Shown piece after piece: positions 53,139-63,946 of a stretch of DNA of 64,000 nt. The DNA is taken from positions 35,881 to 99,880 of the forward strand of contig CAYORS010000001.1 of NCBI GenBank assembly GCA_964406475.1, given 5' to 3'. The notes under the pieces are model-generated. The model saw nothing but the letters and a program-made list of their open reading frames with translations, made no database searches and was not told the origin of the DNA. The stretch's first letter is position 1; each line of letters begins with the position of its first letter. Source of the stretch: an uncultured Candidatus Saccharibacteria bacterium. GTDB lineage: Bacteria > Patescibacteriota > Minisyncoccia > Phycocordibacterales > CAIRYW01. The position numbers and the translations under genes are program-made.

Positions 53139-53213
53139 GCTTCCATCGTTCAATGGATAGGACGCAACTTTGCGGAAGTTGTAATGTAGGTTCGATTCCT
53201 ACTGGGAGCACCA
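53139..53213 (+). tRNA. tRNA-Arg with an unusual genomic anticodon GCG; CCA encoded
   Basis: GCTTCCATCGTTCAATGGATAGGACGCAACTTTGCGGAAGTTGTAATGTAGGTTCGATTCCTACTGGGAGCACCA. Cloverleaf folded by hand: anticodon stem CAACT/AGTTG, loop TTGCGGA. Confidence 0.75.
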
Positions 53214-53420
53214 TTTTAAAAAGCACAAGAAGTTCTTGTGCTTTTTAAAATGGTGCTCCCAAGAAAGTCAAGAGGACTTTCGTGTAGGAATCAAGGCCCG
53301 ATTGAGCATAATTTATGAGTTTACGAAATAAATTATCCAATCGGGGTACTGACCCTGTAAGGGTCGATAAGCGTACTCGCAGTTCTACTGAAATCACACT
53401 TCAAATGTATAAGCCAAGAA
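53203..53420. repeat. tRNA-Arg(GCG)-associated structured repeat element, locus C
   Basis: 27-bp perfect palindrome 53203-53261 that includes the tRNA acceptor 3' strand plus CCA. Hairpin gaaagtc-aagag-gactttc (53263-53281). Inverted T-arm copy gtgtaggaatc (53282-53292). TTACA-loop hairpin on the minus strand (53351-53365). Exact reverse complement of gcgagtacgcttatcg at 53365-53380. Confidence 0.5.
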
Positions 53421-53485
53421 TGTGAAAAGTGCTACATGTCTAAATCATACCTTTTAATAGTTCTTTTGTTTTGTAAAAGAAAAAT

Positions 53486-54634
53486 TTATTTAACAAAAGC
53501 CATAAAATATTCTTCATAAGTATACTTAATATCGTAATTAGTATCTTTTTTTTCTTCCACTAAAATATTTAGATCAATAAATCTATCTATTACTTTCTGT
53601 GCACCCGCGCGAGTAAAACCAGTAGTTTTCATTACATTTTTTGTGGTAACAATAGGGTGTTCAAATAAATAATTTAGAAGTTTTATCCCACTCTCGGATT
53701 CACGTTTTGAAAGAGCCTGTATCTTTGCCATATCCTTATCTCTGATTTTTCTAATTTCACCCGACGTGTCAATTGCTTCTTTAGCAGTTTCAATCACGCC
53801 ATCAAGAAAAAATTCCACCCACTCAAAAACTTCACCATTATCATGATAACCACTCAATTTGTTGTAGTATACTTTCTTGTGTTTTTTAAAATATGAAGAT
53901 AAAAATAGAACAGGTTTTTCCAAAACTCCTTTTTTCATAAGGAGAAATGTTATGAGCAATCTTCCGACACGTCCGTTACCATCTAGAAACGGATGAATTG
54001 TCTCGAATTGAGCGTGCGCGTATGCTATAGATATGAGAGGGAGGGTAGATGTGTCGTTATAGATAAACTTTTCTAAATCATTCAATTTATCCCCCATATC
54101 TGTATGTGGTACAGGAATAAATGTGGCGTTTGTTAAATTCGTTCCCCCAATCCAATTTTGACTTTTTCTAAATTCTCCAGGATCGGCAAAGTGAGAGGCA
54201 CGAGCACCATCCATAAGTTTTTTATGGATCTCTCTTATAAATCTTAATGAAATAGGGAACTCTTTCAATCTTTTGATCCCGTATTCTAATGCGTTGATAT
54301 AGAAAATAATATCAGAAGCATCTGTTTGATTATTTTCAATTTCTGCTGATACCTCTAAAGCATCTGCCATAGTTGCTTGAGTACCTTCGATTTGTGCTGA
54401 AGAAGTGGCGTCTTTGTATGAAAACATTCGGAGGAAAAACTTAATGTCAGGTAGTGTTAACGTAATCCCATCAAGTTTACCTATCAACCTTTCTGCCTCT
54501 GCTGCTTTCAGTAAGATGTTTTGGGGCACCGCAAAAAGCTCGGTTTTTGGAAAACTATCAGGAATAGATGCTGTATATCCTGCTGGCAGGCTTACTTTTT
54601 TGCATATTTTTACTGTATTCATTCTAGTTTGCAT
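53486..54634 (-). CDS. Fic/Doc family protein (Fido domain)
   Basis: Fic motif HPFLDGNGRVGRLL. 382 aa with N-terminal extension. Confidence 0.8.
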   Translation of the reverse strand: MQTRMNTVKICKKVSLPAGYTASIPDSFPKTELFAVPQNILLKAAEAERLIGKLDGITLTLPDIKFFLRMFSYKDATSSAQIEGTQATMADALEVSAEIENNQTDASDIIFYINALEYGIKRLKEFPISLRFIREIHKKLMDGARASHFADPGEFRKSQNWIGGTNLTNATFIPVPHTDMGDKLNDLEKFIYNDTSTLPLISIAYAHAQFETIHPFLDGNGRVGRLLITFLLMKKGVLEKPVLFLSSYFKKHKKVYYNKLSGYHDNGEVFEWVEFFLDGVIETAKEAIDTSGEIRKIRDKDMAKIQALSKRESESGIKLLNYLFEHPIVTTKNVMKTTGFTRAGAQKVIDRFIDLNILVEEKKDTNYDIKYTYEEYFMAFVK

Positions 54635-54812
54635 TGATTATTAAATAGATACTATTTTAATAGTTAGTATCTATTTAGTCAAGTAATGTATACTACATTA
54701 TTGAATGCACAATCTCTATATTATAAAGTTCCTATTGAATATTGAAATAGAACACAAAAAAAGTACATAATCTACTCTGTGAGAGTTCAAAGATAAAAAA
54801 AGGGGGCAAAAA

Positions 54813-55280
54813 CTAAAACCCAATGATTTCCATAATACGGACTGTTGCGGGTTCGTGCATTTCTTCTTCGGGAATATAATCAAGCAAAAAGCTACGCACG
54901 TCTTCCGTGTCTACATAGTCTGTTTCTATAGTGATGATGAGTATTGGATTAACGATTCGTCGTGTGCGCAAGAGGAGTTTTGGTGCTCGAAACCCATCAT
55001 CCAAAACATAAAATGCTTCAAAATCTTCATAATTATAAATCTTATTGTTGATGCGTAGTCCTTTCTGTGTGAGTTCGTAGTCTACAAGCTCAGGGGGTTT
55101 GGCACCATTTATGATCATTGTTGCCCCAGCAATAATAAGAAAAAGTCCAAAAATAGTATTGCCATAAATAAAACAAATGATAGCGCTTGATGCAACGATA
55201 ATTCCCACAGCCCAAAACCAGTCTGTTGTCTTTTCTCGGTATTCAAATTCAAATCCTGTCCAACGCATAAGATTTTCCAT
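54813..55280 (-). CDS. Hypothetical two-TM membrane protein
   Basis: Hydrophobic helices near the N-terminus. No motif. Confidence 0.45.
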   Translation of the reverse strand: MENLMRWTGFEFEYREKTTDWFWAVGIIVASSAIICFIYGNTIFGLFLIIAGATMIINGAKPPELVDYELTQKGLRINNKIYNYEDFEAFYVLDDGFRAPKLLLRTRRIVNPILIITIETDYVDTEDVRSFLLDYIPEEEMHEPATVRIMEIIGF

Positions 55281-62145: not shown

Positions 62146-62170
62146 GTTGTGTTGATGTATAATATAAACT

Positions 62171-62989
62171 ATGACTAAATATATTATTCTCAGTTCTATT
62201 ATTTTACTCGGGACTTTGTGGTTTGTGTTAAATATGCTTGGAAGGCGCAATGTCATAGATTTGCAAAACGAGCCTAGAGATATTGATGTACAGGCATCAA
62301 GCAAGCTTGATGGTGGCGAGGTGACACTTGGTGCACAATTTGTAATTCCCGAAGATAAATATATAACGGTAACATCTGCTGATGGGGGCCCGCTTTTTAA
62401 GATTCAGAAAACACAAAACCAAGTGCTGCTCGGATACATCAAACATCTCTACGATTTTCGTGATGCTGAAGAAAAGAGAAGTGGCAAAACATCGTTCAGG
62501 AGTACTTATGCTGGATACGATGTTGCTTCACTTATAGATCCTAAGTCAGATACCCCCTCTCCGCTCAAAGACTTTTTTATGAAAAATACTGTGGTGTTAC
62601 AATCCTCAGGGACTGGCGATCTTCCTATTGTGACGGTATTTTATATTGATGGTAATGCGTATGCTCTCTATTCTTCTCCAGAAGGGCCAAATGGAGAGAA
62701 TATTCAGTCTGGCAAATTCATTATTGTTAATTATACGAAAGAGATGTCGGAGAGGATTGGGGCCTCTGTTTCTGGTGTACAGAGTGCGGTGGTGGACTGG
62801 ACTGCAAGTGGCTATGAGCTTACATCTAGTGTGAATCCTCCAATCTACTATATTCAAAGAATATATCGCTCAACAAGCGAAAACAAGATCAAAGTATCAG
62901 TCAAAACATATTTAAAAAGCAAGAGTCAATATGAGCTCCAGATAGACCCTCAGACATTAAAAGTTGTTGATGTTGTGGAGCTTGAGTAG
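62171..62989 (+). CDS. N-terminally anchored or secreted hypothetical protein
   Basis: N-terminal hydrophobic segment MTKYIILSSIILLGTLWFVL. Confidence 0.5.
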   Translation: MTKYIILSSIILLGTLWFVLNMLGRRNVIDLQNEPRDIDVQASSKLDGGEVTLGAQFVIPEDKYITVTSADGGPLFKIQKTQNQVLLGYIKHLYDFRDAEEKRSGKTSFRSTYAGYDVASLIDPKSDTPSPLKDFFMKNTVVLQSSGTGDLPIVTVFYIDGNAYALYSSPEGPNGENIQSGKFIIVNYTKEMSERIGASVSGVQSAVVDWTASGYELTSSVNPPIYYIQRIYRSTSENKIKVSVKTYLKSKSQYELQIDPQTLKVVDVVELE

Positions 62990-63200
62990 GGAGTGGCGAG
63001 AGTTTCGACCTCGAAATTCTATATGCTGTTGCATATAGAATTTCTCTTCACTGGTTTTCGCTTCGCTTGTTACTACAAGCTCAATGCGAAAACCGTTCGA
63101 ATCTCACCCGTGTTTGCTTCGCAAACATTTCCTCTCGCAAAGTAAAAGTCCGCCCTATTAAGGCGGACTAAACTTTGCGGAGGCTCTCGAGTTCGGACTT
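62989..63200. repeat. Orphan copy (locus D) of the T-loop-plus-hairpin repeat module, not adjacent to a tRNA
   Basis: gaaaaccGTTCGAATCTCACCCgtg, then hairpin tgtttgc-ttc-gcaaaca, then nested hairpins cctctcgcaaagt...agtccgcc-ctattaa-ggcggact...actttgcggagg. Preceded by a 13-bp IR aaattctatatgc/gcatatagaattt. Confidence 0.4.
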
Positions 63201-63325
63201 TTTAGTTCATTGCATCACAAGGCTTTTCTAATGTTTTTTATAATATCACGACGAGGTATCTCGAGCATACAACTTTTCTTAAAAAAGTGACAAAAGTGAC
63301 AGTAGTTCGGTTTTAATTCCTTGAA

Positions 63326-63946
63326 TTAAATAAGTGTAATAAATTGAAGTATAAATCCGAGTACGAGTAAAATTGCTCCTATAACTCCCCACTTTCTTTG
63401 AGCAAGGCGATCCTGTACTTGAGGAAGTTTAAGTTTTTCTTCCTCAGTATCTCCGGACCATCTTGAAACTCCTAACCTTATCGCTTCAGCTTTAGAAATA
63501 AATAAACCCTTTGCAAATGCAATGCTCCCTAAAAAACTTAATACGATACCTGAAATATTTAGATAACGATCAATACCAACCAGAGAATAGGTGGACACAG
63601 TAAACATTTCAAATAAAGAAATCCAAGGAATTGTAGAAAACATTAGTGCAAGATATATAAGAATAAATATCTTTGGTACGTGAAGTTCAATATGACTAAA
63701 AGGCCAATAGACCTTTTTATCTTTACCTCTACCCAACATTTCCCATTCAGTATCGTACAGAGCCAATGGTAATCTCATCTCAATCGCATGTATCACTTTA
63801 AACTTTGCACTATTTAACCCTTTATATGAAGCAATAATTCTATACCATAGATAACAAATTGTTATTCCTGCTATCGCAGATAGACCTAGTATAAAACTGA
63901 TCTCCTGAGCATTAGCTCTAGTTGCAATAAAGCCGAGAAGTGTCAC
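63326..63946 (-). CDS. Polytopic membrane protein, hypothetical (possibly N-terminally truncated by the window end)
   Basis: 5-6 hydrophobic helices. No firm family call. Confidence 0.45.
   Translation of the reverse strand: MTLLGFIATRANAQEISFILGLSAIAGITICYLWYRIIASYKGLNSAKFKVIHAIEMRLPLALYDTEWEMLGRGKDKKVYWPFSHIELHVPKIFILIYLALMFSTIPWISLFEMFTVSTYSLVGIDRYLNISGIVLSFLGSIAFAKGLFISKAEAIRLGVSRWSGDTEEEKLKLPQVQDRLAQRKWGVIGAILLVLGFILQFITLI

Follow-up and report, generated by a model that had tools for sequence, protein, structure and literature searches.

Does the DNA that follows the tRNA-Arg(GCG) gene near the end of the window (the whole stretch of DNA analysed, 64,000 nt) constitute one integrated element, or is it a place where separate cassettes have collected? 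An original prediction had read the region from 53.2 kb to beyond 64 kb as a single genomic island that a serine recombinase had inserted at tRNA-Arg(GCG) and that had later decayed. The features it listed (a Fic protein, ung, csoR with a multicopper oxidase and several hydrophobic unmatched open reading frames (ORFs)) are real, with Pfam matches and ORFs at or near the expected positions (Table 1). The accessory, mobile and decayed character of the content also stands, whereas its unity and its anchoring on tRNA-Arg(GCG) do not. Our results indicate that the region is probably an accretion hotspot, or flexible 'plasticity zone', of independently exchanged cassettes, not one integrated element.

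In the scenario that we favour, separately acquired units would have been laid on an old backbone, fpg-ruvA-rpsT-tRNA-Arg(GCG)-hyp155-ung. The first would be a 1.2-kb promoter-plus-gene SoFic cassette in a variable slot between the tRNA flank and hyp155, the second hyp245-csoR1-multicopper oxidase, and the third a Tsi6-like immunity-type gene with unmatched genes. The fourth would comprise two or more integrative elements, since dead, that relied on large serine recombinases. One of these, represented by the pseudogene PsiLSR1, would point at locus D, the flank of a tRNA gene since lost; the other, represented by PsiLSR2, would lie next to an S24 gene and a TIR-TIR-8xMP cassette. The fifth would be a csoR2-copA-HMA/DsbD2-cupredoxin efflux operon.

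Comparison loci are designated by L numbers. The ENA contig L001/L022 is the same DNA (99.99% identical) and extends 7.4 kb beyond the window; coordinates above 64000 are window equivalents, calculated as the L022 position + 52170. Two overlapping independent assemblies, ENA ERZ27283041 (99.99% identical) and ENA ERZ27283032 (99.94%), and a Logan contig from SRR6837583 (100% identical across 8.7 kb) agree with the region wherever they overlap it, and it is therefore no assembly artefact. Near-identical strains show the same gene order across it. The source-named RuvA homologues are labelled Patescibacteria, Paceibacterota, Parcubacteria or Taylorbacteria, and the host is a Paceibacteria-type Patescibacterium. 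For synteny, the nearest genomes on long contigs share only 53-57% RuvA identity; a sister lineage, L028 (86% nucleotide identity), is represented solely by contigs of 1.5-2.5 kb.

Conserved backbone and variable modules

The gene order x105-rluB-fpg-(NUDIX)-ruvA-rpsT-tRNA-Arg(GCG)-hyp155 is retained in relatives (L018-L021 and L003), and the same tRNA gene adjoins rpsT or ruvA in L018, L019, L020, L021, L003 and L006. The hyp155 product is 51-59% identical in L018, L019 and L021, where the gene occupies the same position after tRNA-Arg, 37.5% identical in L003 and 39-41% in L088. ung adjoins hyp155 in L018 (65% identity) and lies ~5 kb farther off in L019. The divergence of hyp155 (in the three position-matched loci) and ung matches that of fpg and ruvA (52-56%). 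Because both genes are syntenic in relatives and diverge as core genes do, 54.8-56.0 kb belongs to the ancestral backbone, which rules it out as island cargo; in annotation, ung and hyp155 should not be tallied as such cargo. The slot between the tRNA and hyp155 varies, holding an 88-aa gene in L018, acetyltransferase and Maf genes in L019, nothing in L021 and Fic in the window. The comparison with relatives that had been proposed as a check on the island thus divided the block, with hyp155-ung syntenic at 53-57% RuvA identity and both Fic and hyp245-csoR1-multicopper oxidase variable. Separately, in L021 (9573-9644) and L003 (5331-5403) the tRNA-Arg(GCG) gene points the opposite way with respect to rpsT and hyp155, with flanking gene order kept, which suggests that this segment can flip.

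The Fic gene sits in a self-contained cassette. Its product matches the PADLOC SoFic model (E 4e-108) over positions 6-356 of 361 and contains the Pfam domains Fic_N and Fic. The Fic motif HPFLDGNGRVGR is intact at residue 214, and an inhibitory motif, SAQIEG, lies at residue 79; the protein therefore combines the HxFx(D/E)GNGRxxR and (S/T)xxxE(G/N) signatures with a full-length SoFic match. SoFic homologues defend through AMPylation-driven abortive infection (PMC12249575), and by homology the protein is a predicted AMPylase acting in abortive-infection phage defence. Through a member of its 90%-identity cluster we found a second genome, L024, which encodes a Fic protein of 93.5% identity and matches the DNA at 85.7% across 1219 bp (window 54695-53477). 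For RuvA from the same L024 contig, identity is only 38%, and rpsT shows no similarity at E <1e-4. Homology begins at the promoter, ~60 nt upstream of the start codon, and stops 9 nt past the stop codon; the operator-like palindrome is kept in L024 with a paired change in both arms. In both genomes Fic lies between rpsT and the convergent 3' end of a tRNA-Arg, GCG in the window and TCT in L024. The shared segment contains no recombinase, and its boundaries show no common sequence or repeat between the two genomes. These sequence relationships reflect a recent transfer between very distant Patescibacteria into equivalent neighbourhoods.

The same L024 contig carries, upstream of tRNA-Arg(TCT), a second tRNA-Arg(TCT)-like sequence (3620-3830) whose acceptor, D-arm and anticodon-arm segments are split by hairpin insertions; this sequence may be either a pseudogene or an interrupted tRNA of an unusual kind.

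A second variable module is defined by comparison with the sister lineage. In L028, hyp195 is followed by one small gene and then the Tsi6-like gene (67% identical), and hyp245-csoR1-multicopper oxidase (57.07-59.9 kb) is absent, which therefore represents an insertion or deletion difference between close relatives; hyp271 is absent there too. hyp195 itself had no match in the flanks of the more distant relatives examined. A 42-nt direct repeat, the first copy of which is the 3' end of hyp195, is located at the junction where L028 differs and may be a recombination scar.

Further copper genes lie past the window in a second operon on the minus strand, which encodes a cupredoxin, an HMA/DsbD_2 protein, CopA (759 aa) and CsoR2 (L022 18677-18952). 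This efflux operon is 79-81% identical at the nucleotide level to L122-L124, with 93% amino-acid identity for CsoR2 and 90% for CopA, and homology stops exactly at the operon ends; the flanks are unrelated. Both CsoR proteins match PF02583 and, as paralogues, share 60% identity. The ligand set of CsoR2 is the canonical C-H-C (C...H-x-x-x-C). CsoR1 has C-H-H, and because His replaces the last Cys, the oxidase operon may respond to a different signal. The oxidase has the features of a three-domain multicopper oxidase of the CueO/CotA type, with the copper motifs HxH, HxH, HxxHxH and HCHxxxH at residues 98, 139, 485 and 536 and a Met-rich insert. It would oxidise Cu(I) outside the cell, controlled by a CsoR-type repressor.

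Copper genes had been called unexpected in a minimal genome, a view that the wider distribution of the family overturns. Oxidase homologues number in the thousands at 55-71% identity, and nearly all source-named ones are labelled Patescibacteria or Minisyncoccia. In L026, csoR-copA-multicopper oxidase stands among core genes; in L004, L005 and L013, csoR-copA-HMA/DsbD_2-cupredoxin lies immediately beside ruvA. The copper genes are thus typical of the phylum, yet modular.

The third module with a close match elsewhere crosses the right edge of the window. Past this edge, and all on the minus strand, come the genes for 8xMP (264 aa), a ThsB-type TIR protein (135 aa), a TIR-like protein (123 aa), two small genes and an S24 peptidase; 8xMP is the last gene of a TIR-TIR-8xMP cassette. 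The 135-aa protein matches PF08937 (E 9e-16) and PADLOC ThsB (E 1e-9), and its 123-aa neighbour gives a weak match. The cassette therefore contains the ThsB-type TIR protein of Thoeris, but no ThsA model match, that is, no SIR2-SLOG or Macro-TM effector, was found. PADLOC recognized no complete system in TIR-TIR-8xMP, 8xMP had no PADLOC or PDB match, and a literature search and PDB sequence searches on 8xMP and the TIR protein yielded nothing useful. The cassette recurs on the IMG/VR contig L121 (95/91/66% amino-acid and 77% nucleotide identity), where tRNA-Ser(CGA) follows it. From domain content, TIR-TIR-8xMP is probably a Thoeris-like defence system that combines a sensor or signal component with a membrane effector.

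Recombinase remnants, tRNA-flank elements and motif X

The degraded large serine recombinase of the original prediction was confirmed: PsiLSR1 lacks the catalytic domain and contains an in-frame stop. Measured against the intact 439-aa recombinase of L019, which lies beside tRNA-Lys and a Shedu gene, PsiLSR1 spans residues 135 to ~340 at 54% identity, and the C-terminal ~100 aa are also gone. PsiLSR2, just beyond the window on the plus strand, spans residues 69-438 at 60% identity, and its upstream frame is closed. Given these starting points, and upstream frames that are closed or unrelated, both lack the serine-nucleophile domain. PF07508 is present in both, and the zinc ribbon PF13408 is complete in PsiLSR2 and truncated in PsiLSR1. 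Their mutual identity of 65% points to separate elements. The 71 kb examined contain no intact member of the family, and the recombinase ORFs should be annotated as dead. PsiLSR2 is divergent from an S24 repressor-like gene, and S24, hyp69, hyp92b and PsiLSR2 match PHROG families of repressor, regulator, unknown function and integrase, a neighbourhood that looks like the remnant of a lysogeny-type module. hyp272, which follows PsiLSR1, had no Pfam, PADLOC or PHROG match.

Relatives of these recombinases, at 40-71% identity, are encoded at 60 IMG/VR loci. Among the 41 loci with at least 1 kb of downstream sequence, 12 have a tRNA gene within 3 kb downstream, always convergent; a tRNA gene lies upstream in none of the 60. 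Adjacency to a tRNA 3' end is thus the rule in this family, and the clade behaves like tRNA-targeting integrases. Convergence with a tRNA 3' end is usually linked to tyrosine integrases. In L088, a family recombinase stands beside a hyp155 homologue and tRNA-Arg(GCG). Several 'viral' IMG/VR contigs (those behind L063/L083, L071/L088, L072/L073, L090/L099, L103/L104 and L118/L119) encode two paralogous recombinases, like the remnants here, and many such contigs terminate right at a tRNA gene.

Three of the four tRNA genes in the window (Gly, Lys and Arg-GCG), as well as tRNA-Arg and tRNA-Lys in L019 and L020, are followed by an element of the same architecture. The element begins with a long perfect palindrome, a bidirectional terminator that incorporates the acceptor 3' strand of the tRNA. 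There follow a reverse complement of the acceptor strand and a ~20-nt hairpin, the stem of which varies in sequence between copies and remains fully paired. A reverse complement of the T-loop and T-stem comes next, and then more hairpins and conserved boxes, one of which, GGTCGATAAGCGTACTCGC, resembles a degenerate tRNA-Gly 3' end. At tRNA-Arg(GCG), the palindrome is not a chance match; the same palindrome architecture recurs at tRNA-Gly and tRNA-Lys in the window, at tRNA-Arg in L019 and at tRNA-Lys/Arg in L020. The element copy behind it, copy C, shares blocks of 100% over 29 nt and 89% over 28 nt with the flank of the 48.7-kb tRNA, and its fold z is -3.7 on the plus strand and -4.4 on the minus strand. 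The palindromes that had been described as cassette-separating are real and belong to ordinary parts of the region: they are the rpsT terminator, the tRNA terminator, the Fic promoter/operator and one inside locus D.

The inverted copies follow the local tRNA sequence in each genome, and other blocks of the element are 82% identical over 100 nt between genomes at ~55% RuvA identity. A degenerate direct copy of the tRNA 3' end closes some elements (none of 300 shuffles was as good for tRNA-Gly, and 2 of 300 for the L019 tRNA-Arg). The hairpins are near-perfect on both strands, and two wobble or mismatch cases, judged by eye, point opposite ways. At both gathering and permissive thresholds, Rfam searches of L022, L088 and the window returned only tRNAs and noise, leaving the element unmatched; should it prove functional, it would represent a new class of structured DNA or RNA linked to tRNAs. 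ARAGORN called the tRNA at 48757-48832 (minus strand), which flanks one of the copies, a 'tRNA-Stop(tta)'. We rejected a suppressor tRNA as a mis-call of Lys(TTT), because the loop CTTTTAA gives TTT by hand and relatives have a syntenic tRNA-Lys(ttt) with the same anticodon arm.

The orphan repeat copy that had been noted at the right of the region, locus D, genuinely belongs with the tRNA-attached elements: it aligns with the tRNA-Lys flank of L020 at 81% identity across 73 nt (E 9e-14) and is strongly folded (z = -8.5). It comprises a terminator on the minus strand (63147-63169), hairpins, an inverted T-arm copy at ~63095 and a palindrome (63013-63044), and it now also terminates the TIR-8xMP operon. 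No tRNA was detected beside it; 63177-63199, read by eye, is a possible ~23-nt degenerate remnant of a tRNA 3' end. An assignment of the lost tRNA as tRNA-Ser(UGA) was discarded (alignment 27-31 against a shuffle maximum of 33), and we claim no identity for it. The geometry of PsiLSR1 and locus D is convergent, as is typical of the recombinase family. The predicted link between tRNA and recombinase thus holds for the family, but the tRNA that fits its geometry here is the vanished one at locus D, not tRNA-Arg. This lost tRNA may have been the target of the recombinases, which may in turn have delivered the neighbouring cargo.

In L019 (16305-19609), the intact recombinase and a Shedu (SduA_C) gene lie directly after tRNA-Lys, and the tRNA-attached element seen in L020 and the window is missing. 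This absence is consistent with insertion into, or replacement of, the element; a search for the right-hand junction of the recombinase island beside tRNA-Lys found no element copy within the locus.

Motif X, a ~95-nt conserved non-coding sequence with the core GGGTACTTAACTCACATGGCCCGC, includes a pair of ~10-nt direct repeats whose sequences co-vary from genome to genome. Here it is located immediately upstream of csoR2; in L088 it separates hyp155 from the recombinase, and in L018 it lies 1.5 kb past ung. Its orientation with respect to hyp155 is the same in all three, and in L088 and L072 it adjoins a serine recombinase gene. An nhmmer profile recovered only the four training copies, and Rfam gave no match; the motif could be an attachment (att) site or a small RNA. 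With motif X as a synteny landmark, the interval from ung is 15.2 kb here, ~1.5 kb in L018 (containing DsbB and hyp167 genes) and ~0 in L088, where ung is absent. Motif X seems to bound the variable stretch at its far end.

Table 1 Features of the region downstream of tRNA-Arg(GCG), in window coordinates unless a locus is named.
Feature	Position	Strand	Details
tRNA-Arg(GCG)	53139..53213	+	ARAGORN and Rfam; conserved beside rpsT-ruvA in relatives
Perfect 29+29-nt palindrome, bidirectional terminator	53203..53261		Takes in tRNA-Arg acceptor 3' strand and CCA
Element copy C	53262..~53400	+	Hairpin, reverse-complement T-arm copy, further hairpins, GGTCGATAAGCGTACTCGC box
SoFic-type Fic cassette, self-contained, ~1.2 kb	53477..54695	-	Coding sequence 53486-54634
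Fic promoter TTGACT-17-TAAAAT	54682-54654	-	Within cassette
Fic operator-like palindrome	54642-54677		Within promoter region
hyp155, 155-aa hydrophobic protein	54813..55280	-	Backbone gene; conserved position past tRNA-Arg
ung, family-1 uracil-DNA glycosylase	55354..56025	+	Pfam UDG; GQDPYH and HPSP motifs
hyp195, lineage-specific	56118..56705	+	91% amino-acid identity in sister lineage L028
42-nt direct repeat, 79% identical	56671-56712 and 57073-57114		Flanks small ORF hyp92
hyp92	56772-57050	-	Unmatched ORF between the two repeat copies
hyp245-csoR1-multicopper oxidase, present/absent module	57072..59866		hyp245 on minus strand
csoR1	57939-58205	+	Pfam; overlaps oxidase start
Multicopper oxidase, three-domain	58202-59866	+	Pfam Cu-oxidase_3, Cu-oxidase, Cu-oxidase_2
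Tsi6-like immunity-type gene	59978-60277	+	Pfam Tsi6 E 6e-14
hyp271	60423-61238	-	Absent in L028
PsiLSR1, large serine recombinase pseudogene	61504..62145	+	tblastn vs L019 recombinase; Recombinase-only Pfam ORF 61639-62145
hyp272, hydrophobic N-terminus	62171..62989	+	Between PsiLSR1 and locus D
Locus D, orphan element copy	62990..63199	-	0.85 kb downstream of PsiLSR1
8xMP membrane protein gene, 3' part	63326..64000 (runs to ~64120)	-	Pfam 8xMP E 2e-40, full 264 aa
Motif X copies	L022 19069-19162 (window-equivalent ~71239-71332); L088 7232-7325; L018 1838-1931; L072 7315-7409	- (L022 copy)	
Copies of the tRNA-attached element	Window 200-662, 48290-48756, 53214-53400, 62990-63199; L019 8720-8943; L020 5630-5787		

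Alternative explanations

The tRNA-flank elements, perhaps with motif X, might themselves be recombination sites at which single-gene or operon cassettes were inserted in trans, in an integron-like manner, by recombinases encoded elsewhere. Such a process would fit the position of Fic, a gene without its own recombinase that borders the outer side of a tRNA-Arg 3' flank in each of two very distant genomes. It would fit the arrangement of TIR-8xMP, downstream of which comes tRNA-Ser in L121 and, here, the orphan tRNA flank D. It would also fit the strong structure of the elements, their conservation at ~55% RuvA identity and the degenerate direct tRNA-end copy at the distal edge of some. We nevertheless regard it as unlikely: no common sequence or repeat was found at cassette boundaries, the L024 tRNA flank lacks the element architecture, the L122 copper operon has no tRNA nearby, there are just two instances per cassette, and transformation with illegitimate or homologous recombination explains the same data. 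Similarly doubtful, in our estimation, is the proposal that the element, not described before, is a landing pad for recombination or a miniature non-autonomous element, used in trans by large serine recombinases to insert or swap single-gene defence and stress cassettes among distant Patescibacteria. If true, it would imply an integron-like cassette economy in ultra-small genomes.

The single island with which we began is very unlikely. A tRNA does stand at its left edge with recombinase remnants inside, the recombinase family does neighbour tRNA 3' ends, and an intact relative lies beside hyp155 and tRNA-Arg(GCG) in L088. Islands of the Islander type arise when an integrase splits a tRNA gene, which the island restores, so that a displaced fragment marks the far end (PMC4383910). 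Here, an intact tRNA gene lies at one end, but no displaced 3' fragment was found in the 17 kb downstream searched, in sequence reaching 71.4 kb (window-equivalent). The last 24 nt of tRNA-Arg do not recur there at ≤3 mismatches, and the best local alignment of the tRNA end in the next 520 nt was no better than shuffles; the direct repeat expected at attR was thus not recovered. A similarity to the tRNA end at 43339-43366, within a coding region, was taken as chance. The neighbour of the tRNA is Fic, not an integrase; the recombinase remnants are 8.3 and 12.8 kb off and are two distinct paralogues. Relatives that keep the flanks do not lack the whole block, only Fic and hyp245-csoR1-multicopper oxidase, and each module has a history of its own. 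That hyp155 and ung, both inside the proposed island, are syntenic in relatives already largely refutes the model.

Composition offers the single island no help. Using tetranucleotide L1 distance and dinucleotide delta* in 5-kb windows across 71 kb, we found no anomaly: the region has z ~1.1-1.4, no higher than 1-10 kb and 30-40 kb, so the compositional deviation expected from the original prediction stayed within the window's own spread.

Least credible of all is an ordinary, vertically inherited chromosome whose variability reflects poor sampling or mis-assembly, since typical composition, the shared gene order of near-identical strains and an oxidase family common in the phylum are outweighed by a Fic protein 93% identical to that of L024 where RuvA is 38% identical, by the insertion or deletion relative to L028, by two pseudogenised recombinases with phage-type neighbours and by the agreement of overlapping independent assemblies wherever they cover the region. 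The L024 and L028 data already contradict such a reading.

Several points weigh against an accretion hotspot as well. Most presence or absence calls depend on comparisons that are distant (53-57% RuvA identity) or fragmentary (L028). The module-only homology to L121 and L122-L124 could reflect rearrangement instead of transfer, and att sites were found for none of the modules. Composition lends no backing to a foreign origin, although exchange within the phylum would not be expected to show. Finally, we infer the right boundary from a 95-nt landmark found in four loci. The accretion hotspot remains the probable reading; gene identities, synteny, the presence/absence difference from L028, the abrupt ends of homology at three modules and the truncation of both recombinases are direct observations, and the biochemical functions are predicted throughout.

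Comparison with known systems

The region resembles Islander-type islands in being bordered on one side by a tRNA and in containing accessory cargo and the remnant of an integrase-family gene. Unlike them, it has no detected displaced tRNA-Arg fragment and no integrase beside the tRNA, its tRNA-adjacent genes are conserved backbone and its recombinases are of the serine type. The remnants resemble large serine recombinase elements and prophages of the phiC31/Bxb1 type (PHROG 95) in their Recombinase and zinc-ribbon domains, the divergent S24 gene and the abundance of relatives on IMG/VR contigs. They differ in that both copies lack the catalytic domain and in the consistent convergence of the clade with tRNA 3' ends.

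The Fic protein shares with the SoFic single-gene anti-phage system (PADLOC PDLC03963; PMC12249575) a full-length match, the active-site motif and the N-terminal inhibitory-helix motif; the cassette here differs in lacking a small downstream antitoxin gene like AS1. The copper genes correspond to CsoR-regulated copper homeostasis (CsoR, CopA P1B-ATPase and CueO-type oxidase) in that each of two csoR genes heads an operon, all four Cu-site motifs are present in the oxidase together with a Met-rich insert, CopA includes an HMA domain, and a palindromic box lies in the csoR2 promoter. They depart from it in being divided into two modules 7 kb apart, in the Cys-to-His change at the second ligand Cys of CsoR1 and in the addition of an HMA-DsbD_2 membrane protein and a cupredoxin to the efflux operon.

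Integration hotspots and defence islands between conserved core genes are known from E. coli and other pan-genomes. As in these, a fixed backbone interval here gathers small modules, its content differs between close relatives, and it includes phage-defence candidates (SoFic, the TIR cassette and the Tsi6-type gene), copper stress cargo and recombinase remnants. Unlike these, the interval lies in a reduced Patescibacteria genome, involves large serine recombinases instead of tyrosine integrases, contains several modules without a recombinase of their own and has boundaries that are only partly mapped. Patescibacteria are often regarded as streamlined and static; our results suggest that a fixed interval of such a genome still gathers and swaps small defence and metal-resistance cassettes, with the SoFic cassette clearly exchanged between lineages very far apart. 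The tRNA-flank element, the most interesting by-product of this analysis, and motif X merit study of their own. The locus itself adds one more example to a known kind and stands out chiefly through its presence in a reduced genome.

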